Source: a virus. Taken from it: DNA of 64,000 nucleotides. The translations under genes were made by a program, and so were the position numbers. The stretch covers positions 1-64,000 of the IMG/VR virus record IMGVR_UViG_3300021964_007369, one strand, 5' to 3'. Of the stretch, positions 21,019 to 49,221 are shown in pieces; the stretch's first letter is position 1, and each line of letters begins with the position of its first letter. The notes beneath the pieces are model-generated. The model did not search any database. It saw only the letters and a program-made list of their open reading frames with translations, and was not told where the DNA came from.

Positions 21019-21675
21019 CTATTTCTTCCAAAAAGGATCAGTCCATTCATCTAGCAACTTGCTAGGACGACTAATTTTCATATTAAAAATACTGTGGTTT
21101 ATTAAATCACTGTATGCAGGATTACTTTCACCTGTCCAAGGCGCTCCAATACATAGCGTAATTTTTTCTTCATTGCCAGGTAATAAAGCATGTGGATGAG
21201 ATCCATCTAGTATGTATGTGTGATAACAATCTGGTACATGGATATTATTGTGATTGCTATCTATAAAATAAAGTTTATCAATGTTTCCATTTAATACAAT
21301 TCTAAATTTGTGTTGGCGCGAGCCTATTTCTTTTTCTGTGCTATCTAAATGAACGTTTAGTCCATGTCCGGCAGGAGTCTTTAATATTGTTACTCTACCT
21401 TCTGGAATCATCCAAGGAAAAATTTTTGTTTTCAAAATCCTTTGTGTATGGACACAGTTCTTAGTTGGATCAGTAAATTTGAAAACGCCGTCTTTTGTCT
21501 TTTTAGGATCTTGACCGCCTAGCAACCCTCCTGCATTATATACAGGTAACATTTTACAACCCCTAAACTCGTTGTAGTGCCAGTTTAAAGGACTTACACT
21601 TAACACTTCATCAAGCATAAGTTTTCTATCTTTATCAGTAATCTTTAGGTCTAACGCTGTAAATGTAAAATCCAT
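21019..21675 (-). CDS. Fe(II)/2OG oxygenase (Asp/Asn beta-hydroxylase-like)
   Basis: RVTIL, HLD (HxD), distal HPH, DSBH pattern. Confidence 0.65.
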   Translation of the reverse strand: MDFTFTALDLKITDKDRKLMLDEVLSVSPLNWHYNEFRGCKMLPVYNAGGLLGGQDPKKTKDGVFKFTDPTKNCVHTQRILKTKIFPWMIPEGRVTILKTPAGHGLNVHLDSTEKEIGSRQHKFRIVLNGNIDKLYFIDSNHNNIHVPDCYHTYILDGSHPHALLPGNEEKITLCIGAPWTGESNPAYSDLINHSIFNMKISRPSKLLDEWTDPFWKK

Positions 21676-21686
21676 TATCTTGTTTC

Positions 21687-22409
21687 CTAAACAAGTGCAT
21701 AGCGTATGTGTTGTCTTACTACATCTGATGGAGTGCTATCTCTTTTATGAACTGTTTTAAAATTATTATACACTAGCAATTGGTTTGGTTTCCAATCATG
21801 CTTGTAAAATTTTGTGTTTTGCATAGCAGTTTGCAGTTCTTCTTCTAAATCTGTTTCTGTATATGCTTCACTAAAGAAATAATATTTTCCTGTGCTATCT
21901 TCTTTTACTAAAGGGTGTTCGGCTCTATTCTTCATTCTCCAAGCACGTTCGTGTACTGGTGAATCAAATTCGTAAGGATATTCTTCCTTACTCATATATT
22001 TTGTTATAGTATTCATACATCTTAGATTGCTCGCTTTATCTTGGAGTTCGGTTGTACTTTTATTGTAAGCATCTTGCATGTCTGCAAACCAGGTAGGACT
22101 ACTGCCCTTGTCGGCTCTAATACAATACAATCCTACGTACGGATGACAATCTTTGCTATATGCTCTGTCCTGGTGCCATAGCATATCGTGTGCATGATTT
22201 AATCTTTTGCCATGCTCATCATCGTGTCCTATAGTTACACGCTTTCTACCGTACATATCTTGATCTAATAAATTGCCGAATAACTCTACAGTATCTTCGT
22301 TAGCATCATCAATCACATATAAACTTACAACACCACTATGTAAATCATTAATTACATCTTCGTTTATGTCTTTTACATTTATTTTTTTAATAAACTGTCT
22401 TTGTGTCAT
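21687..22409 (-). CDS. TauD/TfdA-family dioxygenase
   Basis: WHQD, TWFADM, HPLV, WKPNQLLVYNN..VHKR. Confidence 0.82.
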   Translation of the reverse strand: MTQRQFIKKINVKDINEDVINDLHSGVVSLYVIDDANEDTVELFGNLLDQDMYGRKRVTIGHDDEHGKRLNHAHDMLWHQDRAYSKDCHPYVGLYCIRADKGSSPTWFADMQDAYNKSTTELQDKASNLRCMNTITKYMSKEEYPYEFDSPVHERAWRMKNRAEHPLVKEDSTGKYYFFSEAYTETDLEEELQTAMQNTKFYKHDWKPNQLLVYNNFKTVHKRDSTPSDVVRQHIRYALV

Positions 22410-22947
22410 TTAATGTATTTCCTCCTAACCATACTATATATTGCCAACACTCATCACCATCACAAGGTGCTGTGCGCCACAGATCTTTTTCTAGTGTCCA
22501 ACCTTTGTATTTACTATTGTGTTCCATACCTCTGCACAGGTTGCGTATACTTCTTGGATTTTTATATTCGCGACTAATAAAAAATTTGCTAATTCCATAC
22601 TCTAGTTGGCAAAGTTCAATTTGTTGATCTGCTTGTTCGACAGCAAACGTACTCATTCCTTTTATATGGTATTTGTTTACTCTTAATCCAACTTGTTTAA
22701 TTTTGTTGCTTATATAGTATTTACTAAGCAATCGTACTCCGCCATTATAAAAGTCTCGTTTTCTAGCTACACTTCCGCATATGCAATCTCCGTCATCATC
22801 GTAGGTTACGCTATAATATATATGATCAGGATTATTTAAATCTTCTGGCTTATAATTATCAGGCAACCTGTTTAACGGATTTAATAAACTTTCTTCGAAA
22901 AGTTTTACTAGGTCCTTAGGAAGTGTAGGTGTAGTCAGTGTCTTCAT
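22387..22947 (-). CDS. Hypothetical protein, possibly GNAT-like
   Basis: Coupled ORF between two TauD genes; the beta-strand pattern (YYSVTY..ICGSV..VRLLSKYY) is only suggestive. Confidence 0.5.
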   Translation of the reverse strand: MKTLTTPTLPKDLVKLFEESLLNPLNRLPDNYKPEDLNNPDHIYYSVTYDDDGDCICGSVARKRDFYNGGVRLLSKYYISNKIKQVGLRVNKYHIKGMSTFAVEQADQQIELCQLEYGISKFFISREYKNPRSIRNLCRGMEHNSKYKGWTLEKDLWRTAPCDGDECWQYIVWLGGNTLNDTKTVY

Positions 22948-23885
22948 GCTTGTTTTAGATACTTGTAATTAAATGCAATACGATATAATAGTCGATCACC
23001 TTTAACAGCATTACGAGCATGGTAACTCATAAACTGATCGTTGATAATAAGATCACCTGTTTTCCAATGATGATGATACATATATTTCGGTTGGAATAAG
23101 TGTTTGTGTAAAGCACTTAACAAAGGCTTTGCTTCTTCAAGAGTAATTTCTTCACCAGTTTCTTTATTGCGTAGTTTACGCATGACACCAAAGTGTCCTG
23201 TATATATTGCTTTAGGACTGTTCTCTTGATCCCACCAGCCGGGAATTGTTCTAAACGGGTGTTGCACAATCAATGGTTTCCAACTACCTCTAACAGGGTT
23301 GAGTTCTTGTTTACCTTTACGTCCTGTGCTTTTTAAGTTACCTTCAAATATAGCAAGTAGTTCATCCATACCTTTGTTAAGACTGTCGTCATCAAATTGG
23401 TAGATGCTGTTGTCTTTATCAAACTGTGCCCAATATTCAAATTTGTCTGCTTGAGATTTTAGATCATCTGGTAAATCTACATATGCTTGATGACTATTCA
23501 AATAACTTGTTACAACTTGTTCTCCTGGTTTTACACAATAAAAAGCAATACAACTTTCAATAACATGTTTCCAGTGACGCCAATTTCCGTTGTTATGCCA
23601 ACCTAATTCACTTTCAGGAAACAATCCAACAAACTTTCCATCTTCGTCCTTTTCGTTTGTAACTCTTGAAATACCAGGATATTCTTTGTGTTCAAAGTAA
23701 ACATCAAAGCCTGCCTTTTTAGGACTATATAACTTTCCTATACTAGTTGCACCGTCAAGTAATTCTTGTTCATGCAAATTAGCATCCGGAATATATGCAA
23801 TAATATCCTTAGGTTGGTTACGACACACTTCGTGCCAATTATCTGGATCTCTCATATCTAGATTGTATTCTATTGGTTTAAACAT
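22944..23885 (-). CDS. TauD/TfdA-family dioxygenase with a variant metal motif (HNN)
   Basis: ISRVTN, GWHNNG, AYVDLP, HHWKTGDLIINDQ..YHAR, RLLYR. Confidence 0.78.
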   Translation of the reverse strand: MFKPIEYNLDMRDPDNWHEVCRNQPKDIIAYIPDANLHEQELLDGATSIGKLYSPKKAGFDVYFEHKEYPGISRVTNEKDEDGKFVGLFPESELGWHNNGNWRHWKHVIESCIAFYCVKPGEQVVTSYLNSHQAYVDLPDDLKSQADKFEYWAQFDKDNSIYQFDDDSLNKGMDELLAIFEGNLKSTGRKGKQELNPVRGSWKPLIVQHPFRTIPGWWDQENSPKAIYTGHFGVMRKLRNKETGEEITLEEAKPLLSALHKHLFQPKYMYHHHWKTGDLIINDQFMSYHARNAVKGDRLLYRIAFNYKYLKQA

Positions 23886-23888
23886 TTT

Positions 23889-24611
23889 TTACCTCTTTAT
23901 AAGTTTTATAAACCAAGCACCAGGATCAAGTTGATACCAATGCTTGCCAATTCTCCAATTACGACTGTCGTCATGATGGTTTTTGTGCCATCCTTCTCCA
24001 CCTGTTAAGATGTTAGCCATCCAAGAATTTCTTGGTTCGCCGCTTTTTGTATGTGGTACAACATTAACTATTCCGTAGCCATGGAATGCTAAAACTATTG
24101 GCATACAAAAACCAAATAGAAAAAGCATAGGATTTATTATTAATGTTGTTAATCCTACTAACCCAATTAGTAGGAAATAGTTTTTGTAAAAGAATTTAAT
24201 ACTTTTTGTGTTTAATCCTTTTAACATTCTTCTTTCAATTTGTATATTATTACCCCATGTGCTTGTATATACTTTTAAAAAACCTTTTATAGTAGGACTA
24301 TGAGGATCTTTCTCAGAGTCTGTATATGCATGGTGCATTCTGTGTGTTGCCGCCCATGTCATTACAGGTCCTGGATTTGCAAACAAACCAATTATTTGAG
24401 CATACCAAGGATACCATTTAGGTGCTTCAAAAGACTTATGAGCAAAATATCTATGATAGCCTGAACTAATTGCAGTTGCGGCTATCCATTGCCACCATAA
24501 AAAACTAGCAACGAACATCCATAATTCCCCATACATTATAGCAGGTATTAAAGCTAAATGACAAATTATATGTATCGATAATAATTTAGATGTATTACTA
24601 AACTTTGTCAT
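23889..24611 (-). CDS. Membrane fatty-acid desaturase (delta-9/DesC-like)
   Basis: Three His boxes (HRYFAH, HRMHH, HKNHH), DPHSP, GEGWH and transmembrane segments. Confidence 0.88.
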   Translation of the reverse strand: MTKFSNTSKLLSIHIICHLALIPAIMYGELWMFVASFLWWQWIAATAISSGYHRYFAHKSFEAPKWYPWYAQIIGLFANPGPVMTWAATHRMHHAYTDSEKDPHSPTIKGFLKVYTSTWGNNIQIERRMLKGLNTKSIKFFYKNYFLLIGLVGLTTLIINPMLFLFGFCMPIVLAFHGYGIVNVVPHTKSGEPRNSWMANILTGGEGWHKNHHDDSRNWRIGKHWYQLDPGAWFIKLIKR

Positions 24612-25719
24612 TTACTTTCCTTTTAGGTATTTTTGAATCTGCTGAACTGACACAACTCTTTGTAATACATGTCTTAGGTGTCTTAAATAGTTCGAAACCT
24701 GTTTCAATGTTGCCAAGAGGTGCATCATGGCACGAATAGCTTCTTTTTATGCTACCGTCTGGCTCGCGTATTATTAGTCCGCTGTAACCGGCGTTACACC
24801 GCCATCCTTCAAAATTGTTGAAATTAAAGGCATTAAAGCGTTCTGCTTGGTCCATATACCATTTATTACCTTTAGAATCTTCTAGTTCAACTTGCATATG
24901 CCAAGGAACACTTGCATCTGGTTTGCCTATTCCTTGAGGTACTTGGAATGACGGTTTAGGTCTACCTTCCCATTTCCTTTTGTTTTCTGTGTATGCACGT
25001 TGTGGCATTCCGTTGTATAACTTCTTAAGATCTTCTTCTTTATACCCGTCAACAATTTTAGAAGCAGTAGGGTCTGATTGAGGTTTGAGTGTAACGTTGA
25101 TTCCTTGCTCGTGGAAGAACAGGGCGTTTTCCCAATCTCTTTCAAACCAGTCTGGAACCATAACTTGATTAATTGTAACTTGTACATCGTTCTCCTGACA
25201 GAAGATTAACTTGTCTGCAAAGTCTTGCATCTTCTCTTTTGAGTTTACATGTTCTGTATGCAAACTTGCTGTAATACTTGCTCTATGAAAGGGCTTTGCG
25301 TATTCAACATAAGTTTCAAACCACTTCATGTTTCTTGAACAGTTTGATGTCATGTGTATACTTGTGTAGTTTGTATTATCTACATCGTCGGCTAGGTGTT
25401 TTAATATTTCGAGATAACCTGGATGGAACGTTGGCTCACCGCCGGACAAGGAGAAGTGGAAACTGTTGAATCCGTTATCTCTTGCTTGGCGTTTGATTTC
25501 ATCCACTGTTCGCAAGCATAGCTCAGTTGGCCTGTGATCTTTTCTGTCACTTCTGGCGTAGGGCCAACAGTAGGAACATTTGTAGTTACAGAATCTTCCG
25601 AGCAACCAACTGACAGTAAACAGGTCTCTATATAAGAGTGTCCTTTGTCCGACACTAACAATGTCGTCAAACGGGATTTTTGAGAAGTCATAATTACTCC
25701 ATTTAAGTTCATTATTCAT
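24598..25719 (-). CDS. Radical SAM protein with C-terminal SPASM/twitch cysteines
   Basis: CNYKCSYC, SGGEP, C-terminal CNAG...SC...C...C. Confidence 0.88.
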   Translation of the reverse strand: MNNELKWSNYDFSKIPFDDIVSVGQRTLLYRDLFTVSWLLGRFCNYKCSYCWPYARSDRKDHRPTELCLRTVDEIKRQARDNGFNSFHFSLSGGEPTFHPGYLEILKHLADDVDNTNYTSIHMTSNCSRNMKWFETYVEYAKPFHRASITASLHTEHVNSKEKMQDFADKLIFCQENDVQVTINQVMVPDWFERDWENALFFHEQGINVTLKPQSDPTASKIVDGYKEEDLKKLYNGMPQRAYTENKRKWEGRPKPSFQVPQGIGKPDASVPWHMQVELEDSKGNKWYMDQAERFNAFNFNNFEGWRCNAGYSGLIIREPDGSIKRSYSCHDAPLGNIETGFELFKTPKTCITKSCVSSADSKIPKRKVNDKV

Positions 25720-25724
25720 AGCTT

Positions 25725-25753
25725 ATTGTAACACCAATTTAATACGTTGTCAA
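25725..25753 (-). promoter_or_regulatory. sigma70-type promoter, probably giving a leaderless mRNA
   Basis: TTGACA-17 nt-TACAAT ending 5 nt before ATG 25719. TAAATA lies just upstream (25755-60, - strand). Confidence 0.72.
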
Positions 25754-25766
25754 GTATTTATAGGTG

Positions 25767-25772
25767 TAAATA
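25767..25772 (+). promoter_or_regulatory. Late-type promoter core TAAATA (divergent)
   Basis: Upstream of AAGGA-ATG 25794. Confidence 0.5.
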
Positions 25773-25793
25773 CAGTATTATTAAGGATTTGAT

Positions 25794-26504
25794 ATGGATT
25801 GGCATCAACTTATAGAAATGAGACATACTACATTTGCATGGGATACTGAAAAAGTTCCTAGTAAAGAGTTAATTAAACAAGCCTTGCAAGAAGTATATTC
25901 ACACATACCTAGCAAAAATTTACAATTTCCGTACCAGGTTAGACTGCTAAGGAATGACAATCCTGTTATAGCAAAAGAAATTATGACTATATGCCAACGA
26001 AATGCTCATGTAACTATTGAAGAAGATAGAGGTAATCCACAAGTGTTGGCTCCTTGGTTGTTAGGATTTAATAGTAGATGGGTAGGAGACTTAGAACGAA
26101 GATACGAGAAAGAATCTGACAGAGGAAAATTAGACGGGCTAGGCGTAGGTAAAAAACGTACAAACGATCCGCATGGTGATCAGGATAGAACAGAAAATAT
26201 CGAGATAGGAATTTTTAGTGCATATGTTATGTTAGCTCTTGCCAACAAAGGGATACAAACTGGCATGTGTCAAAATATTTGTAAAAATAAAGAAAGAGCT
26301 GGAGAAATATTTAATATTAGTAATGACGATCGAGCAATGGAGTTTAGATTTATTATGGGTGTAGGGTACGGTAAAGATAGCAACATACATCATGAATACT
26401 ACGATCCTCGTGTTGATAAAAATAAAAAGATTCCATTCCCTCCAACTATAGTTGAAGAAGTATATCCTAGACCTAACTTTTCAGATGTTATTATAGAGTT
26501 GTAA
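25794..26504 (+). CDS. Nitroreductase-fold protein
   Basis: RHTTFAW, PSKNLQFPY, APWLL, GIQTGMCQ, MGVGYG. Confidence 0.65.
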   Translation: MDWHQLIEMRHTTFAWDTEKVPSKELIKQALQEVYSHIPSKNLQFPYQVRLLRNDNPVIAKEIMTICQRNAHVTIEEDRGNPQVLAPWLLGFNSRWVGDLERRYEKESDRGKLDGLGVGKKRTNDPHGDQDRTENIEIGIFSAYVMLALANKGIQTGMCQNICKNKERAGEIFNISNDDRAMEFRFIMGVGYGKDSNIHHEYYDPRVDKNKKIPFPPTIVEEVYPRPNFSDVIIEL

Positions 26505-27186
26505 AAATACTCAAACCAATTTTACGAGTAATACCAACTTTCCTAAAATCACTAGCACAATGAAGTTGCAAACTATCAAATGCAATATAACTTCCTGGTA
26601 TCCAAGGAAAGTATGATTTCATACTAAGACCTTTAATCCATTTTTCGTCTAAGTGTGTTAAGAAATCTTTACGCCAAATATCAGATATTCCTCTATCATT
26701 TATTCCTTCTACTTCTTCGTAACTTGTAATTGCTTGGTTGTAAGTAGGACTTTTATAATCTTCGCCGTTTAAAAACTTTGCGGGACCGCCATAGTAATAC
26801 TGATCAAAAAAACATAACTTTGCATCTAATGGACTTGCGCCACCGATTACTTGTAAAGGTATTGTAAATGCTTTGTAACTGTTAGGTAACTCTCGTCCAT
26901 CATCAATATGAATTACATGCGGCACTTCAGTATCAAAGATTTGTGCATTACGTACTTTAAAATTTCCGTATTTTTTACGCAGTGGTATAAGTAAATCATC
27001 TATAACGCCTTCACCTTCTTTTATATACAAACATTTAGGACCTGTAGGTTTTTCATCTACTTTGTCTTTGTGATTATTATAATGTTCTAATAATTTTTCA
27101 ATGTCGTGTTCTTTTAGAAAAATAAATTGTTGTGTTGCCGGAGACTGGCTTTCTTTTATTTTATCAATTTGTAATTGAGTTCTCAT
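26491..27186 (-). CDS. Putative Fe(II)/2OG oxygenase
   Basis: HID (HxD), W.PGSYIAFDSLQLH, KIGLSIF. Confidence 0.6.
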   Translation of the reverse strand: MRTQLQIDKIKESQSPATQQFIFLKEHDIEKLLEHYNNHKDKVDEKPTGPKCLYIKEGEGVIDDLLIPLRKKYGNFKVRNAQIFDTEVPHVIHIDDGRELPNSYKAFTIPLQVIGGASPLDAKLCFFDQYYYGGPAKFLNGEDYKSPTYNQAITSYEEVEGINDRGISDIWRKDFLTHLDEKWIKGLSMKSYFPWIPGSYIAFDSLQLHCASDFRKVGITRKIGLSIFTTL

Positions 27187-28375
27187 TAAAAATATCCTCT
27201 AGTTCTGGAAATATTTTCCAGTAATTTTTGTTATGTAATTGTTCTTGCTTTTTATACCAGCTGTATGCTTTATCTAAATATTCTTTATCTCTACGTGTAC
27301 CTATTTGACTACGTATATCATGTAAATGCTGTATGTATAAATGTTTTTGTTTTAATTTTAATTTCATAACATATTCAACAGCATCGTCTATATAACTTGT
27401 ATATTGTTCAGGAAGTATAGCAGGGTGCATTGCTTTTGGTTCAGTTAATGTATTAATACTTAATCCCCATGTCTTTCCAAATGCATTCCAATCTCTATGC
27501 TTTTGAACTAACCTTGTAGCCCAGTCTAAAAATTGCACGTGATCTGTAATAGATAATGCACTCATTGTAGGTAACAAACCTACTCTAGTAACTGCTGGTT
27601 CACTCATAAGCCAATCTAAATTGTGTTCAAATCTTGCAAAATCTAAACCTTCTCTTATTGCTTCTGCTCTAATTCCTATGTTGTCAATGCTTGCATTAAG
27701 ACTGTGTACTACATATGGATATTTTTTACATATGTCTATAAACTTTTGTACAACACTTGGTCCTAAATTTAGATTACTAATAAACTGCATTACACATCTT
27801 TGCTTTCGTGTGTTGTGAATATTTGCCAAGTATTCAACTATATCAAGAAATTCATCTATTAAAAATGTTTCTCCGCCTAAGAATGTGTATATTACACTTT
27901 CTTTATCTCCAGTGTTATTTTCTATATGTTTATACAAACTTGTAAGAGCCGCTTCTTGCCATTCTGCATCAGGCTCTAAAATAGGTACACCTAATTTTTT
28001 TGCCCATAAACTACTTACTTCTGGTATACAATATATGCATGTCTGATTACATTTACTAGAAAGTGCTATTTCAATTCTGTAGGAAAGATCATTTTTTAAA
28101 TTAGGTGTTGACTTGTTTAACCAATTGTTCCAAGTGTTGTATTGACTATTAGGGTGGTTAGAGCTACAGGCTTCACAACCTTTAGGAAAATTATTATTTT
28201 TTATCCAATACTGTTTTGCTTCTGTTAGTTCTTTGCGGTCGGTCCAAAACTTTGGGTCTGAAATTTCTTCTATTGTAGGTGTTTCAAGTTGTTGTCTTTT
28301 ACAACAATTTACAACTTCTTTTCTATGGATGTTTAAGTTTATGTCCGTCCATAACCTACTGCAAGGAGTAATCAT
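27164..28375 (-). CDS. Radical SAM protein with N-terminal twitch domain
   Basis: C..W...NCC...C..C, then CNQTCIYC, GGE, SID...IREG. Start 28375 (TAATG overlap). Confidence 0.85.
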   Translation of the reverse strand: MITPCSRLWTDINLNIHRKEVVNCCKRQQLETPTIEEISDPKFWTDRKELTEAKQYWIKNNNFPKGCEACSSNHPNSQYNTWNNWLNKSTPNLKNDLSYRIEIALSSKCNQTCIYCIPEVSSLWAKKLGVPILEPDAEWQEAALTSLYKHIENNTGDKESVIYTFLGGETFLIDEFLDIVEYLANIHNTRKQRCVMQFISNLNLGPSVVQKFIDICKKYPYVVHSLNASIDNIGIRAEAIREGLDFARFEHNLDWLMSEPAVTRVGLLPTMSALSITDHVQFLDWATRLVQKHRDWNAFGKTWGLSINTLTEPKAMHPAILPEQYTSYIDDAVEYVMKLKLKQKHLYIQHLHDIRSQIGTRRDKEYLDKAYSWYKKQEQLHNKNYWKIFPELEDIFNENSITN

Positions 28376-29133
28376 TAGAATGCCTTTGTTATGCTCATTA
28401 ACTTTAATACATTTTCCCAAGTTTTTGGTATATTCATTACAAGATGGATACTATCGTTTACCCAACTGTGTGTTCTATGAGTCTTTGTTGTGTCTACATA
28501 GTAAACACCGCCGGGCTTTATTGGAACTTTTGTGTGTTCCATTTCCCATTCGAATTCGTCTCTTGTTACATTCCAACTAGGAAATGCAACTACTCTAAAA
28601 GTGTCTCTTGTAAGTTTAGGATGATCTTTATGCGGAGGAAAATATCCTCCAGCATTTGCTTTAACTAACATTGTTCTACCTAATGGTTTCCAATAGTCTA
28701 ATAATTCATGTAAACTAGGAAGCATATTATATGCTTCTGTAGGAGTGTTGAATTCTGTTTCGCTTAAACGTCTGCCAGCTTTTTTACATGCTTCTGGCAT
28801 ACTCAACCCTTCTTCCATAGAAGCATCAGGTAACCCAAAAAGAGATATTCCTTCTCTGTCGTTCATTATACCTTCTCTACGTAGGTACGGTACCCATCGG
28901 TCATCAAGTGCTTCAACTTCTTTCATAAATTGACTTGGATCTATTTTTATACTTAGAGGCTCCCAAAAACTAAGCATGCCTAATTGAAGTTCACACTTTA
29001 GATCTTCGTTACTAGGATCTAAAGACTCTGGATTGTCTAACCATGTTTGATAATAGTTTGCTTGTGTAGCTCTATTCGCAAGAGGTATTAAATTAAGTTG
29101 TTTACCGTCTTTATCGTATTTTTTATAGTCCAT
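28375..29133 (-). CDS. Fe(II)/2OG oxygenase (Asp/Asn beta-hydroxylase-like)
   Basis: FPPHKD (HxD), YYVDTTKTH, IHLVMN. Confidence 0.68.
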   Translation of the reverse strand: MDYKKYDKDGKQLNLIPLANRATQANYYQTWLDNPESLDPSNEDLKCELQLGMLSFWEPLSIKIDPSQFMKEVEALDDRWVPYLRREGIMNDREGISLFGLPDASMEEGLSMPEACKKAGRRLSETEFNTPTEAYNMLPSLHELLDYWKPLGRTMLVKANAGGYFPPHKDHPKLTRDTFRVVAFPSWNVTRDEFEWEMEHTKVPIKPGGVYYVDTTKTHRTHSWVNDSIHLVMNIPKTWENVLKLMSITKAF

Positions 29134-29144
29134 ACTAATATTTA

Positions 29145-31189: not shown

Positions 31190-31193
31190 ACTA

Positions 31194-37920: not shown

Positions 37921-37927
37921 ACTGTAC

Positions 37928-39473: not shown

Positions 39474-39690
39474 CTAGAACCATCTTTACATCTTTGCCGG
39501 GGCCAACACGACTGGGCAGATCACCGTATTCTTTTACATACCAATCAATTACTGCAACATACCAATTTTCACTGTTATGATGAGCTTGTTTGTTAAACTG
39601 CCAAATATTATTGTTAGTGGCTTGCATTGTACTTAACGCTCTAGCACTTTCGGTTTGCAGTTCTCTGAGTGTTAGTTTCTTTTTTTCCAT
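39463..39690 (-). CDS. Small hypothetical protein
   Basis: 75 aa ORF overlapping both neighbours. Confidence 0.65.
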   Translation of the reverse strand: MEKKKLTLRELQTESARALSTMQATNNNIWQFNKQAHHNSENWYVAVIDWYVKEYGDLPSRVGPGKDVKMVLDGS

Positions 39691-41265: not shown

Positions 41266-42271
41266 TAAATTGTTCCTTTAGCCATTCAAAGTCATTAATT
41301 TTTTTGATTGCATCAGTGTTGCCTTTGTTAGCAAGTCCATACTGTCTGCCAGCTCTTGCACCTTTGATAGCATATTCGCCAAACGGTGCTCCGTTGTTTT
41401 TCGTACACCATATTTCCAAACGCTCATTAGTTTCATCGTCTTTTTGTCTATCAATAACTTTACTTGCAAGTTTACAACATTCTCTAAATGCACTTTTCCA
41501 TGTAGCAAACTCATTTGAATTAAAACTTGTAATACACGACATTTGATCCACTGCTTTAAACTTATTACTAATACTAGTTGTCATATCTGCTGTATCAACA
41601 TTCATGTCAATAGTCTTTTGTGTTGGAAATAATTTAATGCCTCCATATCCGTACACTAGATCATTTATTGGATTTCGACTACGGAAAACATGTACTGCAT
41701 CTTTATTCCAACACTCTACTTGGTAATCAAAATTAAATTCATCTACTACAGTTGCATCGCCATCTACAATATAAAACATATCTGTAGTTGCTAGTTTGGC
41801 GGCTTCAATATGTGCTTGGTGTATTCCTTTTACATCTTCGACTCTTTTGCAGGGGAAACGTCCATTAAGTAATCTATAATTGTCGTCGGCTGTTGGTTCT
41901 TTATAACTTATCATCACTATGTCATACTTAGGTATGATAGGATTACTTGCAACTATATCTAATTGTTTTTTCTTAGCAAAGAATCTATAACTTAGTTCTT
42001 GTTTACTTGGAGTTGCATTATTCGGAAACAAACACATACCATCATAGTGTTTACCGTTTTTAAAGATATGCGTATACTCGGTACTATGCGAATCTACTGT
42101 ATAATTAAAATCATAGTCTACTCTTATGTCATCCCATATAGCATAAAAATATTTTGTTAAACATATTTCTTTTGCATGGTCAAAGTTCGTTGCTTTCTTT
42201 AGTACGGGAATTTGTTTTTTGTGTGCATTATAGTTCTTTGTATTGCTACCTACATATATGACGTCATACAT
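41252..42271 (-). CDS. GT-A-like glycosyltransferase with a degenerate duplicated N-terminal domain
   Basis: YIVDGD (DxD), NDLVYGYGGIKLFP, WKSAFRE. The N-terminus repeats the YD.I...FY.(W/V)DD..DF pattern. Confidence 0.6.
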   Translation of the reverse strand: MYDVIYVGSNTKNYNAHKKQIPVLKKATNFDHAKEICLTKYFYAIWDDIRVDYDFNYTVDSHSTEYTHIFKNGKHYDGMCLFPNNATPSKQELSYRFFAKKKQLDIVASNPIIPKYDIVMISYKEPTADDNYRLLNGRFPCKRVEDVKGIHQAHIEAAKLATTDMFYIVDGDATVVDEFNFDYQVECWNKDAVHVFRSRNPINDLVYGYGGIKLFPTQKTIDMNVDTADMTTSISNKFKAVDQMSCITSFNSNEFATWKSAFRECCKLASKVIDRQKDDETNERLEIWCTKNNGAPFGEYAIKGARAGRQYGLANKGNTDAIKKINDFEWLKEQFNANT

Positions 42272-42993
42272 TCGTACACCTCCTTTGCAAAAATTTCGTG
42301 CATTTGTTCAGTTGGATGTGACCCTGGTAATCTTGTATGCATTTTATTACTATAATCTAGTAACGTTTGACCAAAGTTTACTTTTACATCAAGTAAATTA
42401 TATAATTCGCAATCACGATTCTTTGTAGGGTCAATAGAAAAATGACACATTCCTGAATCTATTATTAACACAGGAATGTTTCTTGATGCTAATAAATTTT
42501 TTGTTCCAGTAATTACATTATATGTACGCCATAGGTTGTCGTAATCATTTGGCTCTGCTAACAAATTTGTTAACCAACTAGGACGTTGAGGGAGAAAACT
42601 TCTAAAATTATATTCAGTATGTTCACTGTGCATTGCATGACCAAATCTTGCAGGGTGTGTCAACATAATTATTACTAGATCGGGCTTACGGAAATTTCTT
42701 GATATTTGTTTGAGAACACGCCAACATATTTCTTCGTTACTAATTCCGCCCATAGAAACATTTTGTACTTCAAAATACGGATCTAATTTTTGTAACTTGG
42801 CAGGCCAAGCACGATCTCGTTGTCCGTTGAGTACTTCTTTGTATTTTGGTTTGTCATGATTCCACAAATTTGCTAATTGTTTCTGATGTTGTTCATGCAG
42901 GTTTTTGTTTACATCGCTTTCAAGATACCCTGGTACAAGTTCTACCAACTCATCACCTGCCGTAAAACTACAACCTGAAGTTATGATTTCCAT
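42250..42993 (-). CDS. SGNH/GDSL-like protein
   Basis: SGCSFTAG, NVSMGG.SN, GSHP. Confidence 0.62.
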   Translation of the reverse strand: MEIITSGCSFTAGDELVELVPGYLESDVNKNLHEQHQKQLANLWNHDKPKYKEVLNGQRDRAWPAKLQKLDPYFEVQNVSMGGISNEEICWRVLKQISRNFRKPDLVIIMLTHPARFGHAMHSEHTEYNFRSFLPQRPSWLTNLLAEPNDYDNLWRTYNVITGTKNLLASRNIPVLIIDSGMCHFSIDPTKNRDCELYNLLDVKVNFGQTLLDYSNKMHTRLPGSHPTEQMHEIFAKEVYECMTSYM

Positions 42994-44336
42994 GAGTCGT
43001 AAACTCCTTTACAATAGTCATAAAACGCAGTATATTCAGGAAACGTGTTTAATAAGTTAGTTCCAATACGTTTATCATTTTCTGTAAAGAAACTATAAAA
43101 GTCTCTTTGTCCTTGTTTAATTTTTTGCGGATCAACAGGATTTTGATACATATAATCACGTACACGTTGCATCTTTGCAATTTCAACACTAGTAAAATAG
43201 TCTTTGTTGTTACTCATGTACTCTAAGTGTTCATCCATAAACTTGTTAAACATTTGAGGTAATATATTGATCATCCAATGCGGCGGCTCTTTTAGATATG
43301 GCGTATCAAATGCAAGTGCTTCTTTTCCGTATATCTTGCGCCAATGCATAACACGTTGTAAAAAGTTTTGGAATGTTGCTACACATAATACGTTAAATGT
43401 ACACATGATGTTAACTTTGAATCCACGCTTAATTGCTTCTTCAAAGTTTCTCTCCCAATGATCACATTTTAATCCTGTACGCATATACTCTGCTTGTTCT
43501 CCCCAACCTTCAATACTTGTAAACAAACTAAACTTTCGTATCTTCTTTTGATCTAATAAACTTTGTACTCTATCATACATCCTGTCCATTTTTGCAGTAG
43601 TAACACCTAAGTTACTATTAATGCTAATTTCTAATTGTGGTGCTGGTTCTTTTTCTAATAAGTCAAAGAACTGCATTGCACCGGGATTCATTAGAGGCTC
43701 GCCTCCTGTAATTCTAAGTGTGTGTAGATCTTTACGTAGATCAGGCCACCATTTCCAAAATGCCTCAATATAAGGATTTTCATCCTTGGGTGCGTAGTAA
43801 CGTCCGTTATCTAAAAATTCTGTGCCGTATTGATTATATGTTAAATCATAATTGCCATGTTTCTTAATCTCATCCATCCACTTTGTACTTGCTTGGGGAC
43901 AACAGTATCCACAACGATAATTACACCCGTTACCAAAACTAACTTCTAAATAACGTGGATTTACATTTTCTAACCAATGCTTTTTTGATATCTCTTCAAT
44001 CTCTGGTTCAGACCAATCACTTGCACTGTGTATCATCCTATCTGATATTTGATCTCCTTCAAGGTCTTCAATGTTCCAGCAATAGTAACATTCTTCAGGA
44101 CGCTCACCTTCTAACATTTTTTTACGCTGTTGTTTTTTCCATGCTGTATTGTGTAAAGCACTTGGATCAGCTTTTATTTCAGCTAGAGGTATATGCTGTG
44201 GACGTGGATGATAGCAACTATGATTATCACCTGTGTGCAAATACAATGTTTCATGAAGCCACTTCATTGTGCAAAATCCTTTGCCAATTTTGTTTAATCT
44301 ATCACGTACATCTTTAATATCGTCAACTCTACTCAT
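42981..44336 (-). CDS. Radical SAM protein with N-terminal twitch-like domain (HSCYHP subtype)
   Basis: CTMKW...HSCYHP...CYYC; CNYRCGYC; TGGEP. Confidence 0.88.
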   Translation of the reverse strand: MSRVDDIKDVRDRLNKIGKGFCTMKWLHETLYLHTGDNHSCYHPRPQHIPLAEIKADPSALHNTAWKKQQRKKMLEGERPEECYYCWNIEDLEGDQISDRMIHSASDWSEPEIEEISKKHWLENVNPRYLEVSFGNGCNYRCGYCCPQASTKWMDEIKKHGNYDLTYNQYGTEFLDNGRYYAPKDENPYIEAFWKWWPDLRKDLHTLRITGGEPLMNPGAMQFFDLLEKEPAPQLEISINSNLGVTTAKMDRMYDRVQSLLDQKKIRKFSLFTSIEGWGEQAEYMRTGLKCDHWERNFEEAIKRGFKVNIMCTFNVLCVATFQNFLQRVMHWRKIYGKEALAFDTPYLKEPPHWMINILPQMFNKFMDEHLEYMSNNKDYFTSVEIAKMQRVRDYMYQNPVDPQKIKQGQRDFYSFFTENDKRIGTNLLNTFPEYTAFYDYCKGVYDSWKS

Positions 44337-45720
44337 AATAATCCTTTAATGACGGGAACACATCTACAAAATTTGTATTTCTACGTTTGTCATGTTGTTG
44401 AAAGAATAACTTAAAATTCTTTTTTGCTGTTTCTCTGTCAAAGCCTGTATCAGCCTTAATCCAGTTTATTAGTCTTTTAACTTTGTTTATTTCAAAATCA
44501 CTAAATCCTTGGAATTCATTTTTATCACCGTCCTTATTATATTCCATATATTCTACACATTGTTCTAACTGTATAACACGTTCGGGCATTAGCTTAGGAT
44601 TCATATAATCAGGATTTGTTAATTGTGGAATATCAAACCATATCATTTGTCTTTGTTTGCTGTACTGTGTTCGTAACTTGTGTATTTGTTGCATATAATT
44701 AAATATCCCATTATAGCTAAGTGTATTGAATGTTATGATAAATGTTAAACTGTGTTTATCACATTGCTCTAAATATTGTACAACATTTTTATAAAATACA
44801 TCAAAGTCTAAACCGTTACGAATATATTCCGCTTGTTTGCCCCAACTGTCTAAACTTGCAAACAACATAAAATGATCTAGGTTAGGTGTAAGTGTTTGCA
44901 TACTATTAATAAACTTTTGCCATTGTCCTTTAGGAGGGCAACAGTTACTTGTAATACTCATATGCAAATCTTCTTTAGGATTTTCTTTTACATAATCAAA
45001 CATTTTAAAAGTATTTTTATCCATCAACGGTTCGCCACCGGTCATTCTAAATGTTTGAAGTGTAGGATAAATTTCTGGTAACCATTTCCAAAATGCATTT
45101 AAGTACATGTTGTCAGGACTGTTATCTACCTTTTCCATATACTGCATATCATTATGCTTGCGATTATGTAAATTGTACGGTCCTTCTTTTTTAATTTCTT
45201 TCATCCATTCTGTACTCAATATAGGAGAACAATATGAACACTTAAAATTACATGCTTGGTTAAAATTAACTTCTACATATCTTGGGCGGGCGTTGCCATC
45301 CATACCTAATTGCTTTGCTTCTTCTATAAGACCTGGTTCGTATACATCTTTACTTCTATATGCTCTATCACTTAGTTGTGAACCACTGTCTTCAGTTTGC
45401 CAACAGAATTCACACTCAGGTGGGCGTATTCCGTTAAGCATCATACCACGCTGTTCTTTTTTATGCTTGGTATTATGTAAGGCGCTGTTATCATCTTCGA
45501 GCTCTGTTTTTGGAATGAGATGACTTTTGGGATGATAACAGCTATGTGTCTTTCCGGTCGGTATATGTATGCTTACATTAAACCATTTGGCTAGACAAAA
45601 ACTTGGGCTAACTTCATTAAGTTTTTCTAACACGACTTCAGCATCGTGCATATATCGACTTTCAAACTTGCCGTCGATTTTTCTTAATTCATTACCTTTT
45701 ATGTTTCTATTATATTTCAT
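44329..45720 (-). CDS. Radical SAM protein with N-terminal twitch-like domain (HSCYHP subtype)
   Basis: CLAKW...HSCYHP...CEFC; CNFKCSYC; TGGEP. Confidence 0.88.
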   Translation of the reverse strand: MKYNRNIKGNELRKIDGKFESRYMHDAEVVLEKLNEVSPSFCLAKWFNVSIHIPTGKTHSCYHPKSHLIPKTELEDDNSALHNTKHKKEQRGMMLNGIRPPECEFCWQTEDSGSQLSDRAYRSKDVYEPGLIEEAKQLGMDGNARPRYVEVNFNQACNFKCSYCSPILSTEWMKEIKKEGPYNLHNRKHNDMQYMEKVDNSPDNMYLNAFWKWLPEIYPTLQTFRMTGGEPLMDKNTFKMFDYVKENPKEDLHMSITSNCCPPKGQWQKFINSMQTLTPNLDHFMLFASLDSWGKQAEYIRNGLDFDVFYKNVVQYLEQCDKHSLTFIITFNTLSYNGIFNYMQQIHKLRTQYSKQRQMIWFDIPQLTNPDYMNPKLMPERVIQLEQCVEYMEYNKDGDKNEFQGFSDFEINKVKRLINWIKADTGFDRETAKKNFKLFFQQHDKRRNTNFVDVFPSLKDYYE

Positions 45721-46640
45721 TCAATATCTATAAACTGCTGATTACTATTTCTACTAGGATTTTGATATACTGTTTTAAAGAAAGCACTTTGTTCTGGATC
45801 TAAAGGATCAGTTGCAATAGGAATATCTAATTCATGTTTAAGTGTTTCTCCTAGTCCCATAATTTCGTATGGCAACTTATCTTCAGTAATTCCACTATAA
45901 TTCTTTTTCCATATATCATTTAGGTATTCAAAGTCACGTACATTTACATAGTCCCAATCAGTACACATAGTTTTATACAATCCTTCTCTTGCTCCATAGA
46001 TTGCCCAATTACCATTTTCTACATCTGCACCTACCATTAACCAAATCCAAAGTCTATGCAAATTTTTCCAATGACCGTTTAAGAATTCTTGCTTGGTAGA
46101 TTTTACACCTCTGTCAAGTGCCATCTTAACTCCTTCACGGAATCCAGCACGCCAGGCTTGTTGTGGAGTATAATTATTCCACACATCAGAATAGCAACTA
46201 TTTTGTTGTATATACTTTAAGTCCCAACAAAAGTCTACCTGTGCATGTGGATTATCCGGATCAGCATTCTCGTGTGTTTTCATATTAAGTACAAACTCTT
46301 TAGGCCAACATTTAAGTCCACCGTTGCCGTATAACAATCCGTTAATTACATTCTTGCCACACCAACTAATAACACAATTTTCTAAATCTGTATGTTCATC
46401 AAAGTCTATTTCTTGCTCTAAGAACTTTGGGTGTACTGTGTTATCGCCATCAACTGTAATAAATCTGCTTGTTTCACTTAGGTTAGCACAGGCTTTGTGT
46501 GCGGCGTCTGAGCCTTCTACACCGTGTACACGTTTTGCCCATGGTACTTTAGTAAGTAAATCTGCATAATTTTTTTCAGCATTAGGTTCATCATAACTTA
46601 AATAGATGATATCACAGTCAATAACTTTAAATTTGTTCAT
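45717..46640 (-). CDS. GT-A-like glycosyltransferase (paralog of 41252-42271)
   Basis: SYDEPNA, ITVDGD, NGLLYGNGGLKCWP, AWRAGFREG. Confidence 0.6.
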   Translation of the reverse strand: MNKFKVIDCDIIYLSYDEPNAEKNYADLLTKVPWAKRVHGVEGSDAAHKACANLSETSRFITVDGDNTVHPKFLEQEIDFDEHTDLENCVISWCGKNVINGLLYGNGGLKCWPKEFVLNMKTHENADPDNPHAQVDFCWDLKYIQQNSCYSDVWNNYTPQQAWRAGFREGVKMALDRGVKSTKQEFLNGHWKNLHRLWIWLMVGADVENGNWAIYGAREGLYKTMCTDWDYVNVRDFEYLNDIWKKNYSGITEDKLPYEIMGLGETLKHELDIPIATDPLDPEQSAFFKTVYQNPSRNSNQQFIDIE

Positions 46641-47161
46641 GTTAGGTCCTTGTAATTATATTTTGCAAATTGGCGTTTTGTATAGATACTAAAGTTCTTA
46701 CTACTATCGAATAAGCAAGAATTATCTTTTCGTAAATCAACTCTAAATAAATGATATAATATGTGAGGATTATCTTTAGCTGTAATGCTAAAACTTGTTT
46801 CACTGTCTAGGCTTGTTGTATCTAATATTTTTTTAATTCTGTCATTTATATTAATTTTAAGTTTATCACCGTCATAGGTTATTTCAATATCTGCATCATC
46901 TATTCCGGATTCAATTTTTGTATATCCTTGATATGTTTGTAGTATTTCTGCTTCATGCTTTAGTTCAAACTTTGAGTCTATCGTATTAAACACAACTCTA
47001 TAATCTGCTTTATTATCTTTGAAGTTTAAAATTCTTTCAACAGATGAAAAATCAACTTCAATATTATCATATCCTTCTGCTTTACTTGGTCCTACAGAAT
47101 AAATTTTTCCAGTTGCAATTTCAAAATTCACAATCATTTGTGGAGTACAATCTATATTCAT
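46637..47161 (-). CDS. Hypothetical protein
   Basis: Coupled ORF. Confidence 0.68.
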   Translation of the reverse strand: MNIDCTPQMIVNFEIATGKIYSVGPSKAEGYDNIEVDFSSVERILNFKDNKADYRVVFNTIDSKFELKHEAEILQTYQGYTKIESGIDDADIEITYDGDKLKININDRIKKILDTTSLDSETSFSITAKDNPHILYHLFRVDLRKDNSCLFDSSKNFSIYTKRQFAKYNYKDLT

Positions 47162-47976
47162 AACACTTTACTTTCGTATTTTTTAATTAAACTTTCTGTA
47201 ACAAAATGATTTTCTGTATAATGAAATATACCTTCTTGAATAAAATTACCAATTATAAGTTTTACATCATCTGTAATTGTATAAGATACTCTGTCCTGCC
47301 AAGTAGAAGATTCGTTGCGCCAATCCTGGGCTCTTGATTTCATATGTGTAAATGTAGGCAAATTAATTTTAGGATTAGTAACTTGTTCTTCGATGTCCAT
47401 TGCTTTGATAGCAATGCTTGCAGTTACATCCATACTTGCATTTTTAGGATATTTTTTAGGAACATATTTTCCATAAAATAATTCTCTGTTGTTAATGATT
47501 AATTCTAAAAATTTATAAAATTCTAATGCTAAATTAGATTTTTTAAAATAATGATATCCAAAGTAAACGTTAGGTAAGTTGTTTACAGTAAATGCTTCTC
47601 TATAATAATCACTAGTTACTATATTATTTCTATATGTATGTACTTTGTTTGTAAAGAACAGTTCATAATTTTCAAGTAATTTCCAATAATGGCTTACATC
47701 TGTAAGAAATAACATATCGCTATCTAATATAACAGTTTCTTCATACGGTGATATATGATATAGTTTCCATCTATGTTCTACAGCATAACGTTGCTCTTCG
47801 ATCCAAGGTATATCTATAATATTATCAAATAGGCTTTTGTATTTTTCTGGCACTGGCGTGTCTGTTGCAATACTTACGCTATCAATTTGTTGTGTGTGCT
47901 TTATACTCATTGCACATAGACACGCTTGTATTACATATTCAGGTCCTGTAGCAAGTATTAGATATCCTTTACTCAT
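47158..47976 (-). CDS. GT-A glycosyltransferase (GT8 / nucleotide-diphospho-sugar transferase-like)
   Basis: GYLILA, SPYEETVILDSDMLF (DxD), FTHMK. Confidence 0.7.
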   Translation of the reverse strand: MSKGYLILATGPEYVIQACLCAMSIKHTQQIDSVSIATDTPVPEKYKSLFDNIIDIPWIEEQRYAVEHRWKLYHISPYEETVILDSDMLFLTDVSHYWKLLENYELFFTNKVHTYRNNIVTSDYYREAFTVNNLPNVYFGYHYFKKSNLALEFYKFLELIINNRELFYGKYVPKKYPKNASMDVTASIAIKAMDIEEQVTNPKINLPTFTHMKSRAQDWRNESSTWQDRVSYTITDDVKLIIGNFIQEGIFHYTENHFVTESLIKKYESKVL

Positions 47977-48829
47977 ATATCATTTCCTCACGTATACGAT
48001 CGTTAAGACTAAATTTATTCATTACATGCATATCAAGTCCTTTTGTTGAAATTGCATTGTAATGACCAGTTGCTCCTTGTTGTTCAACTAAAAATGTATT
48101 TTCGCCTGCTTCCATTTCTATAAAAATGTCTCTATCTAATGTATAATATAATTTTCCTGGAAATTCTTTAGCATATCTTCCTGTTGTACCGTTTAGAATA
48201 TGTAATGCTATACTAAATGCATGATCATTTCTAAATGTTGTTGTACCAACATCATAGATTAAACTGTAATGTTCCCAATTACGTACTACATGTCTTAGTG
48301 TATCAAAAAATAACGAAGCATATTTTCCTTTGCGAAAGAAAAAACAAGTAGCCCAGTAAAAATCTATCCCAGTATCATTAATGTAGTCAAACTCATAGTC
48401 ATGTCTCCAACCTGATATATCAGTAGCGTCTTTATAAATTAGTAAATCATTTTTATCCTGAAATGCTTTTAGTAATTTTTTACTGTTAATCACATAATCT
48501 GTATCAATAACAATAGTTTCATCGTACGGCGACAGGTCATATGCCATATGCCTGTGCGAATTTCTAAATTGTAATACCTTGTAAGACGTTGACCCGTCAT
48601 AGTATCGTTTATAATTTAAAGGTAGTATACGTCGATTTTCTAAATCTATAATTTTATCAAATAGATTTCTATACTTTTTATATTTGCTGTTGAAATGAGC
48701 TCTATCAGTGGTTACTAACGTTACAGGTATGTTTAAAAATTGTTTGGCTCTTTTAGCAACAAAACACGCTTGAAGTACATAGTCAACATTATCATTATTT
48801 ACAGCAAATAGTAATATGCCTCTACTCAT
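47969..48829 (-). CDS. GT-A glycosyltransferase (GT8-like), paralog of 47158-47976
   Basis: GILLFA, SPYDETIVIDTD (DxD), FRNDHAFSIA, HVMNK. Confidence 0.7.
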   Translation of the reverse strand: MSRGILLFAVNNDNVDYVLQACFVAKRAKQFLNIPVTLVTTDRAHFNSKYKKYRNLFDKIIDLENRRILPLNYKRYYDGSTSYKVLQFRNSHRHMAYDLSPYDETIVIDTDYVINSKKLLKAFQDKNDLLIYKDATDISGWRHDYEFDYINDTGIDFYWATCFFFRKGKYASLFFDTLRHVVRNWEHYSLIYDVGTTTFRNDHAFSIALHILNGTTGRYAKEFPGKLYYTLDRDIFIEMEAGENTFLVEQQGATGHYNAISTKGLDMHVMNKFSLNDRIREEMIYE

Positions 48830-49169
48830 ATTTCAGCAACCCTAAAACTTTTCTATTTTTTATTAACTTATTATACTCTGTATGAAATCTATTTGAAGCA
48901 GTAAAATACACGTTCTTAATTTCTTCTAAGAAATCAGTAGGTGTCACTTCAACAGGTTGAGAATTGTCGTCAATAAGAATGAGAGAGTCTTGATTGCTGG
49001 TTGCCATATAACTAACAAAATTTATGAGTTCAGGATCTACTGTAAATTTAGAACCGTTGTGGTAATAAATTAGATCTTCTTGATACTTTTCGTTTAGTAT
49101 ACGCTTTTGATTGTTTAATGTTACATTAAAGTTAGAGAACTCTAATGCTTTTTCTAGTCTTTTGTCCAT
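48822..49169 (-). CDS. Hypothetical protein, first gene of the island
   Basis: AAGGA RBS; LIDDNSQP. Confidence 0.7.
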   Translation of the reverse strand: MDKRLEKALEFSNFNVTLNNQKRILNEKYQEDLIYYHNGSKFTVDPELINFVSYMATSNQDSLILIDDNSQPVEVTPTDFLEEIKNVYFTASNRFHTEYNKLIKNRKVLGLLKYE

Positions 49170-49192: not shown

Positions 49193-49221
49193 AGTATACG
49201 ATATTTAAGACTAAATGTCAA
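49193..49221 (-). promoter_or_regulatory. sigma70-type promoter with a nested late core
   Basis: TTGACA-17 nt-TATACT, with TAAATA at 49202-49207 inside the spacer. Confidence 0.78.

Follow-up and report, generated by a model that had tools for sequence, protein, structure and literature searches.

A modular island of radical S-adenosylmethionine enzymes and glycosyltransferases behind the tail-fibre genes of a Rak2-like jumbo phage

Behind the tail-fibre genes of the IMG/VR virus record IMGVR_UViG_3300021964_007369 lies a 28-kb island (positions 21019-49169) that encodes 11 radical S-adenosylmethionine (SAM) enzymes together with glycosyltransferases, oxygenases and other candidate tailoring enzymes. 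The window analysed here is the first 64 kb of this 91.8-kb linear record, which CheckV rates as 25% complete, and it is a fragment of a Rak2-like, T4-related jumbo phage, probably a marine one judging from the literature. The island is genuine and conserved, selection clearly acts on it, and its class is widespread but uncharacterised. An earlier note, made from the letters of the window, had described it as a phage-borne set of tailoring enzymes adjoining tail-fibre genes, and our results support that description. Our best explanation is a composite island in which two modules that combine glycosyltransferases with radical SAM enzymes probably build and tailor a sugar structure and a third module is separate; we give this reading about an even chance. 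A glycan-type product is the best-supported chemistry, and here too we put the balance at roughly even.

The island holds 31 open reading frames (ORFs; those of at least 115 aa, range 115-477 aa), called g01 to g31 below. Thirty are on the minus strand, to which island coordinates refer unless stated otherwise, and one is on the plus strand (25794-26504). A conserved 75-aa ORF (39463-39690), sited in the gap at 39473-39672 and missing from the earlier list, brings the total to 32 genes. At 24 junctions neighbouring island genes overlap (1-65 nt), and spacers longer than 40 nt number just three, which bears out the claim of about 31 densely packed genes with a single one on the plus strand.

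The 11 radical SAM proteins of the earlier note are confirmed by two signs. The motif CX3CX2C occurs once in each of 11 ORFs and in none of the 22 other ORFs checked, and the same 11 ORFs are all of the matches to Pfam Radical_SAM (PF04055). Because both pick out identical ORFs, the core observation is correct and a chance pattern is excluded. Eight of the 11 score above the Pfam gathering cut-off of 29.5 bits, and the three below it (starting at 27164, 36514 and 44329; 19.7-28.4 bits) match the family NF033640 over their full length. An all-against-all BLAST divided the 11 into a family of eight (21-35% identity), a pair of paralogs, g06 (24598-25719) and g17 (35537-36517), and a singleton, g19 (37928-38995), with a Cys-rich C-terminal region. 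The top Pfam score belongs to g06, which has orthologs at 62-89% in many relatives. The family of eight consists of g09 (27164-28420), g12 (29855-31189), g14 (32090-33238), g15 (33231-34463), g16 (34420-35601), g18 (36514-37947), g25 (42981-44336) and g26 (44329-45720), the last two being 35% identical, and it corresponds to NCBIfam NF033640, "N_Twi_rSAM". Seven of them match this family end to end at 233-417 bits, with g18 scoring highest, while the divergent g09 reaches 154.7 bits against a cut-off of 170 bits. A literature search found no paper on NF033640 and no characterised member.

In the alignment, all eight paralogs have four N-terminal cysteines that are invariant, and likewise the CX3CX2C triad and a GGE motif. 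Pfam SPASM is found at residues of about 6-108, ahead of the SAM core, and exceeds the Pfam cut-off in half of them. The N-terminal part of a 30-sequence N_Twi profile matched the C-terminal twitch domain of BtrN (E 4e-7), and the core matched SkfB, GDGT-MAS (E 3.6e-8), BlsE, viperin, MoaA and TvgB (8VPO), a cyclopropyl synthase of peptides that are made on ribosomes and modified after translation (RiPPs). The AlphaFold2 model of g14 (predicted local distance difference test [pLDDT] score 92.5), whose C-terminal part is all-helical, had the same mixed set of Foldseek neighbours, with sugar-type and peptide-type relatives unseparated, so the structure does not reveal the substrate class. In a quick maximum-likelihood tree, each of the eight window genes pairs with copies from other phages and not with its own neighbours, which indicates that the duplications are old, that each lineage has been kept and that the enzymes are old and specialised.

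Four glycosyltransferase-like proteins had been proposed, and all four are supported. The paralogs g30 (47969-48829; DTD motif) and g29 (47158-47976; DSD motif; phrog_1903) are GT8-like: the single sequences gave no Pfam match, and their profile matched glycogenin-1 (GT8) with an E of 0.006 over 106 columns with the DxD aligned. A GT-A (GT2-like) fold is predicted for g27 (45717-46640; DGD motif), the AlphaFold2 model of which (pLDDT 88) matched ThuS/SunS, TarP/TarS and PBCV-1 A64R in Foldseek; the probability was 1.00 for ThuS, SunS and A64R, at a template modelling score of about 0.3 and a sequence identity of 9-16% (A64R and TarP comparison). Its paralog g23 (41252-42271) carries an N-terminal extension. 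D64 and D66 of the DxD motif are invariant in g23 and g27, and Pfam GT2 is found on some homologs. This family has at least 7995 metagenomic members, a few of them with Pfam GT2, and a profile search of the PDB with it gave no match. Most of the metagenomic homologs are 530-540 aa long, about double the domain length, and the usual form is therefore probably a protein of two domains in tandem; here there are two separate genes instead. The suggestion that the glycosyltransferases come first in the operon holds for g30, g29 and g27, which lie on the g31 side, but not for g23, which is located mid-island.

The earlier note had put forward conserved position with variable content as a check on the island, and among near relatives this is what we find. 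A pattern scan of IMG/VR returned 105 related stretches, of which 80 loci were kept, and these show radical SAM arrays in a recurring order (g33-g32-g31-g30-g29-g27-g26/25 ... g23-g22-g19-g18 ... g14 ... g06-g05-g04) with a varying number of N_Twi paralogs. Five records encode 17, 19, 22, 13 (in 32.7 kb) and 7 radical SAM proteins by Pfam; the 22 are those of a complete 328-kb genome with terminal repeats (G003), and a relative contig with an island of about 54 kb has 19. N_Twi genes account for 14 of the 22 in the complete genome, and eight copies are packed into 19 kb here. A 256-kb relative (G002) shares the window layout of giant protein, fibres, island and convergent left-flank block, with an island of about 54 kb compared to 28 kb here. 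It retains, in order, orthologs of g31, g30, g29, g28, g27, g25, g26, g23, g22, the 75-aa ORF, g19 (87%), g18, g14 (78%), g06 (80%) and g10; about half of the window genes have no counterpart in it, and it has many extra genes. Annotation of its 13-kb insert, as of about 12 unassigned ORFs, came from targeted family scans only.

In the more distant G003, the orthologs are found in three places, at 176-185 kb behind the fibres (module A), 288-296 kb (module B) and 64-92 kb (module C). Since near relatives vary in content and the G003 modules are dispersed, the island is composite, with at least three modules to it. The idea of a single assembly line is not borne out, given the three locations in G003 and a desaturase, g05, of the stand-alone Delta9 lipid type. 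In this conserved backbone, module A would consist of g31 and g28, the pair of GT8-like genes, one GT-A gene and two radical SAM genes of the N_Twi type; module B would have a GT-A gene, g22, the 75-aa ORF, the g19 radical SAM gene and N_Twi paralogs; and module C the g06 radical SAM gene, the desaturase and oxygenases dependent on iron and 2-oxoglutarate (Fe/2OG). The fibre genes have module A attached to them in G002, in G003 and in about 12 further contigs. It is headed by g31 (48822-49169; 115 aa), which has no Pfam or PHROG match; its orthologs are conserved in position in about 12 loci as well as in G002 and G003. The other module A gene without a family match, g28 (46637-47161; 174 aa), has an ortholog in G002.

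Sugar chemistry is also suggested by the company that these genes keep elsewhere. The G002 island contains a NAD-dependent epimerase/dehydratase for nucleoside diphosphate sugars (E 8e-44) and a DegT/DnrJ aminotransferase between two fibre-linked N_Twi genes, and the module C region of G003 contains a UDP-glucose/GDP-mannose dehydrogenase, a carbamoyltransferase, an FNR-like reductase, TauD, SufBD and a TonB-dependent receptor. Outside phages, NF033640 genes were present in 4 of 400 sampled Bacteroidota genomes. Three chromosomal Bacteroidota loci (L110-L112) have two to four N_Twi copies each, as tandem paralogs; unlike the island they have no phage context, and seven of the eight cellular copies form a clade of their own. 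Two of the loci encode a methyltransferase-GT2 fusion, GT22-like and GT11-like proteins, a polysaccharide deacetylase and GDSL/SGNH proteins. The third (L110; G088 chromosome, 1.21-1.23 Mb of a 1.46-Mb contig) has two divergent N_Twi genes, five tandem PhyH genes, a homolog of the WelO5-type halogenase, a methyltransferase and a reductive-dehalogenase-like Fe-S protein, and looks like an uncharacterised oxidative or halogenating tailoring cluster. The partners in these loci are the same set as in the island, met independently in cells. Matches from a single-protein scan of genome contigs were set aside: these were only contigs of metagenome-assembled genomes that resembled binned phage DNA, with seven to nine N_Twi copies each and mutually inconsistent phyla.

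The remaining enzymes of the island are assigned with varying firmness. Five Fe/2OG-type oxygenases had been counted, of which g02 (21687-22409) and g04 (22944-23885) are TauD-family dioxygenases by Pfam. The other three share an invariant HxD motif and are motif-level or weak leads: g01 (21019-21675) and g08 (26491-27186) are possible members by HxD..H, and g10 (28375-29133) is a probable Asp/Arg-hydroxylase-like member whose nearest cluster holds proteins of the Asp/Arg-hydroxylase (LpxO-type) family. A profile search of the PDB with the three pooled gave no match. The desaturase is confirmed by Pfam FA_desaturase (E 5e-13): g05 (23889-24611; 240 aa) has the His boxes HRYFAH, HRMHH and HKNHH and two hydrophobic (transmembrane) segments, and its Delta9 regiospecificity is what we presume from this motif pattern (HxxxxH, HxxHH, HxxHH). 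It is the only membrane-embedded protein of the island, all others looking soluble, and it forms a conserved trio with the radical SAM gene g06 and Fe/2OG oxygenases; in G003 an FNR-like reductase gene adjoins the desaturase homolog. The two nitroreductase folds, g07 (25794-26504, plus strand) and g11 (29145-29855), are supported by a profile search of the PDB in which nearly all matches were nitroreductases (E 3.5e-4).

The proposed methyltransferase, kinase and two to three SGNH proteins fared less well. The conserved Rossmann/methyltransferase-like g22 (40423-41265) is a weak lead, with Methyltransf_31 in 21% of the members of its nearest named cluster and no match in a profile search of the PDB. 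The small kinase-like g20 (38982-39473; HRD..N and DAD motifs) has marginal matches (E about 0.003-0.006). Two SGNH-like proteins stand, at motif level: g21 (39672-40436; GDSYTAG) and g24 (42250-42993; GCSFTAG) conserve block I (GDS/GCS-x-TAG), a GG block and a C-terminal His. When they were compared with cellular GDSL neighbours by hhalign, block I alone aligned, at a probability of 2.4% (not significant), and a profile search of the PDB gave nothing meaningful. No family match was obtained for g03 (22387-22947; 186 aa) or g13 (31194-32093; 299 aa).

The flanks place the island directly behind baseplate and tail genes on the same strand, as the earlier note had claimed. Beyond the window, the record encodes a baseplate wedge protein, a gp5-like hub/lysozyme, a gp55-like late sigma factor and a gp46-like nuclease. 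At 35-38% identity, the nearest counterparts of the wedge protein are in Rak2-like jumbo phages (340-490 kb), among them Salicola SCTP-2, Agrobacterium Atu_ph07 and Escherichia phage A4. The minus-strand frame at 56170-63999, which leaves the window there and continues to 71016 of the record (G000), is a 4948-aa virion protein (phrog_10938) between the wedge gene and the fibre genes. It is VrlC-like by position, and its counterparts in relatives have 2683 to 3986 aa. Four tail-fibre-like genes follow (49240-55537, minus strand), and the minus-strand order is therefore baseplate, giant protein, four fibre-like genes, island. The far end of the island does not meet a tail-fibre gene head-to-head as had been stated; it is convergent (tail-to-tail) with a fibre-like gene at 19787-20926 (plus strand), identified by a weak PHROG tail-fibre match and, by eye, fibre-type terminal motifs. 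Past this gene is a plus-strand block with exonuclease, ATPase and HNH genes, and the left flank also holds an Epimerase-family (short-chain dehydrogenase) gene at 1199-1951 (plus strand). A megablast of the left flank against cultured phages gave no match.

Strict sigma-70-type sites (TTGACA-N16-18-TAYAMT) occur seven times in the window against 0.47 expected, a 15-fold enrichment, and all of them point in the coding direction. Five precede plus-strand genes of the left flank, and two are on the minus strand: TTGACA-17-TATACT at 49193-49221 heads g31 and the long minus-strand unit, and TTGACA-17-TACAAT at 25725-25753 precedes the g06-g01 unit and is abutted by the T4-late-type motif TATAAATA at 25755-25762. 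This late motif is four-fold depleted, with three copies in the window against 12.4 expected, of which two precede g06 and the last fibre-like gene (50208-50215). No terminator turned up when the stretch from the fibre genes to g31 was scanned. The two minus-strand promoters thus point to two units with early-type promoters of their own, possibly with read-through from a late fibre operon, and with only three copies of TATAAATA in the window the timing is ambiguous. The phage seems to use both promoter classes, sigma-70-type and T4-late.

From the gene content, folds, paralog history, synteny, variability and gene associations described above we infer a carbohydrate substrate, the types of reaction and a target (virion fibres or host envelope precursors). 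The island is a hypervariable region that closes the string of baseplate, giant-protein and tail-fibre genes. Modules A and B would take nucleotide sugars, either those of the host or ones modified by the phage, and build from them a sugar chain on an acceptor in the cytoplasm, with the soluble GT-A and GT8 enzymes attaching the sugars, and would then edit it. Each N_Twi orthogroup may carry out its own C-H abstraction on the sugar (oxidation, epimerisation, deoxygenation, or C-C or C-methyl formation), aided by a BtrN-like auxiliary 4Fe-4S cluster. The Fe/2OG oxygenases, the nitroreductase-like flavoproteins and the SGNH-, methyltransferase- and kinase-like proteins might add further decoration, and the variable set of paralogs would give each phage a lineage-specific version of the product. 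Module C, with its lipid desaturase, probably has a separate auxiliary function and may act on lipids. Of the decorated glycan or other coat on the virion or cell surface that the earlier note had envisaged, the glycan is the part that is best supported, by four GT-A-type genes and the sugar genes of relatives.

Several points weigh against this explanation. The island in the window has no nucleotide-sugar gene of its own, the association with cellular glycan-type genes comes from three loci only, and no substrate has been demonstrated for any NF033640 member. Among solved structures, the nearest cores belong to peptide maturases (TvgB 8VPO and SkfB) no less than to enzymes of sugars or nucleotides (BlsE, viperin and BtrN), and several fold assignments are at the motif level only. 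The Delta9 desaturase and the many ORFs without an assignment fit no glycan pathway, and the modules of G003 are up to about 110 kb apart. Five related phage records, the complete one included, had no priming phosphoglycosyltransferase or Wzx flippase (Bac_transf, Glycos_transf_4 and Polysacc_synt), so that a route to envelope polysaccharide would need borrowed host machinery. As g05 is also the only membrane-embedded protein, the acceptor is more likely to be cytoplasmic, be it a virion protein, a small molecule or a lipid-linked intermediate of the host.

A bolder version of the glycan reading would be a virus-specific glyco-code, in which a sugar chain, built in the cytoplasm on the tail fibres or another virion protein, is diversified by a toolbox of N_Twi radical SAM enzymes; we find this rather doubtful. 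No firmer are its further parts: that the relatives in hundreds of aquatic jumbo-phage contigs share this code, with swaps of paralogs altering the virion surface and host range, is a tentative idea, and that every orthogroup performs a different, so far undescribed functionalisation of sugar C-H bonds is equally conjectural.

The alternative that we take most seriously, possible though on the unlikely side, is that the region after the fibre genes is hypervariable and tolerant of recombination, much as the host-recognition cluster is in pelagimyophages and cyanomyophages, and collects independent auxiliary enzymes without a common product, each acting on different metabolites, lipids or envelope parts. 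The stand-alone type of g05 and the strong differences in island size and content (28 kb here and about 54 kb in G002) would fit such a cargo region, islands with variable radical SAM cassettes are known from the literature (PMC7029224), and the modules of G003 are dispersed among genes for a TonB receptor, SufBD, ClpX, NAD synthase, SbmA/BacA and aldehyde dehydrogenase. The last four are at 273.5-287 kb (L100-L101), near module B. However, gene order within modules is kept across many contigs, the tight overlaps suggest translational coupling, all 32 genes have two strict sigma-70-type consensus matches between them, and the partner set of glycosyltransferase, SGNH, oxygenase and N_Twi genes recurs in cellular loci. 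Remodelling of lipids, by which the radical SAM enzymes, the desaturase and the Fe/2OG hydroxylases would alter lipids of the infected cell, either acyl chains or molecules of the lipid A type, draws on the Delta9-type g05, on the g06-g05-oxygenase order kept in several contigs, on the match of the N_Twi core to GDGT-MAS, which forms C-C bonds in lipids, on the LpxO-type neighbours of g10 and on the FNR-like reductase beside the desaturase homolog in G003. It leaves the four glycosyltransferases and the sugar-nucleotide enzymes of relatives unexplained and has a single membrane-embedded protein to work with; we regard it as quite unlikely for the island, and likely true of module C at most. 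Hypermodification of phage DNA, with bases decorated by glycosylation and radical chemistry to evade restriction, is highly improbable. Phage glycosyltransferases that act on DNA are well known, and both island promoters share their sigma-70 type with the promoters of DNA-metabolism genes in the left flank, but Pfam detected no DNA-binding, base-flipping or nucleotide-kinase/transferase families in the island, SGNH-like, GT8-like and desaturase genes are not known from DNA modification pathways, and module A travels with fibre genes and not with replication genes.

Modification of peptides or proteins, in which the radical SAM maturases would act on a ribosomal peptide or on side chains of a phage protein such as the fibre, together with glycocin-like glycosylation by the GT-A enzymes, also seems unlikely to us. 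The N_Twi core matches include the RiPP maturases SuiB and CteB besides TvgB and SkfB, as well as anSME, the top matches of the g27 model, ThuS and SunS, are peptide S-glycosyltransferases, and the SbmA/BacA gene near module B in G003 would encode a peptide transporter. The 75-aa ORF, with 55-80% identity over more than 20 related contigs and no family match, almost always lies directly upstream of a radical SAM gene, of the g19 or the g06 type depending on which is there, and these downstream genes are not N_Twi genes; in this window, the kinase-like g20 sits between it and g19. Its conservation is even along its length, without a leader/core pattern, and it has no Cys, so it looks like a small partner protein and not a precursor peptide. 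It was the sole small-ORF candidate for a RiPP precursor and was rejected on these grounds, since the search for others in the island found none and no free space. Nor does the island encode a protease or an exporter, no Pfam PqqD match was found in the 11 radical SAM proteins or any other island protein, although no dedicated search for remote RiPP recognition elements was made, and the C-terminal part of g14 is all-helical.

Although radical SAM enzymes are sensitive to oxygen and cost much iron, 11-22 of them are encoded per genome in these phages, which the literature suggests are marine. Some of these phages add Fe-S assembly genes and one a TonB-dependent receptor. In G003, the receptor and SufBD head a radical SAM cluster (62.4-66.5 kb; L090:2399-6485) and an A-type Fe-S carrier gene is found at 8366-8671, and genes for iron uptake and cluster assembly thus accompany its 22 radical SAM genes; no flavodoxin was found in the five phage records. 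Should the product coat the virion or the surface of infected cells, it would add a new level of control over host range or superinfection in viruses that abound in the ocean, and if the genes are independent, the island would show jumbo phages storing and shuffling oxidative enzymes behind their fibre genes. In either case, NF033640 has thousands of members in metagenomes and no established reaction, and is therefore a large untapped source of enzyme chemistry.

Phages rich in radical SAM genes have been reported before, so the statement that no phage pathway is known with so many of these enzymes holds only in that none has been characterised. Timms et al. 2010 (PMC2853527) described 11-12 radical SAM genes in the Campylobacter phages CP220 and CPt10, and Nishimura et al. 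2017 (PMC5332604) 12, with Fe-S carrier genes, in the T4-like Tara genome TARA_ERS488813_N000010. Zaragoza-Solas et al. 2020 (PMC7029224) found GT8 genes and variable radical SAM cassettes in the host-recognition cluster of pelagimyophages and proposed modification of the host O-chain, without an experimental test. A 2025 cyanophage paper (PMC12801897) lists a radical SAM gene in the vicinity of genes for an aminotransferase and an amidinotransferase (ORFs 305, 306 and 309). None of the four studies put a function to the test. The best N_Twi homologs in cultured phages, RsoM2USA and KVP40-like Vibrio phages, are 22-24% identical, and there is no close homolog among them.

The likeness to known systems is partial in each case. 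NF033640 is a family defined by sequence, and its copies in the window share the N-terminal four-Cys twitch domain followed by the CX3CX2C core. BtrN, the 2-deoxy-scyllo-inosamine dehydrogenase of butirosin synthesis (PDB 4M7T), has an auxiliary-cluster domain homologous to that of the N_Twi proteins and oxidises an amino-sugar-like cyclitol, which is consistent with a role in sugar tailoring. However, its twitch domain is C-terminal where that of the N_Twi paralogs is N-terminal, the cores show no specific kinship, the best core matches being TvgB and SkfB, and there are no aminoglycoside genes here. The PBCV-1 capsid glycosyltransferase A64R and the prophage TarP match the g27 model at the level of the fold, and these enzymes of virus glycosylation are likewise soluble, cytoplasmic and encoded near structural genes, although radical SAM tailoring is not known there. 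CP220, CPt10 and the Tara genome resemble the phage in having 11-12 radical SAM genes per genome, partly in exchangeable modules, but the CP220 modules are accompanied by amidinotransferases, unlike the island. The window phage is not a pelagimyophage, its nearest cultured kin being Rak2-like, its radical SAM load is much higher than that of the pelagimyophage cluster, and its island is bounded by a convergent early-type block whereas the cluster of pelagimyophages and cyanomyophages is bounded by the neck gene gp14. Even so, the host-recognition cluster resembles the island: it is large and hypervariable, it follows the genes for a giant virion protein and for tail fibres within the structural region, and it has GT8 genes and variable radical SAM cassettes.

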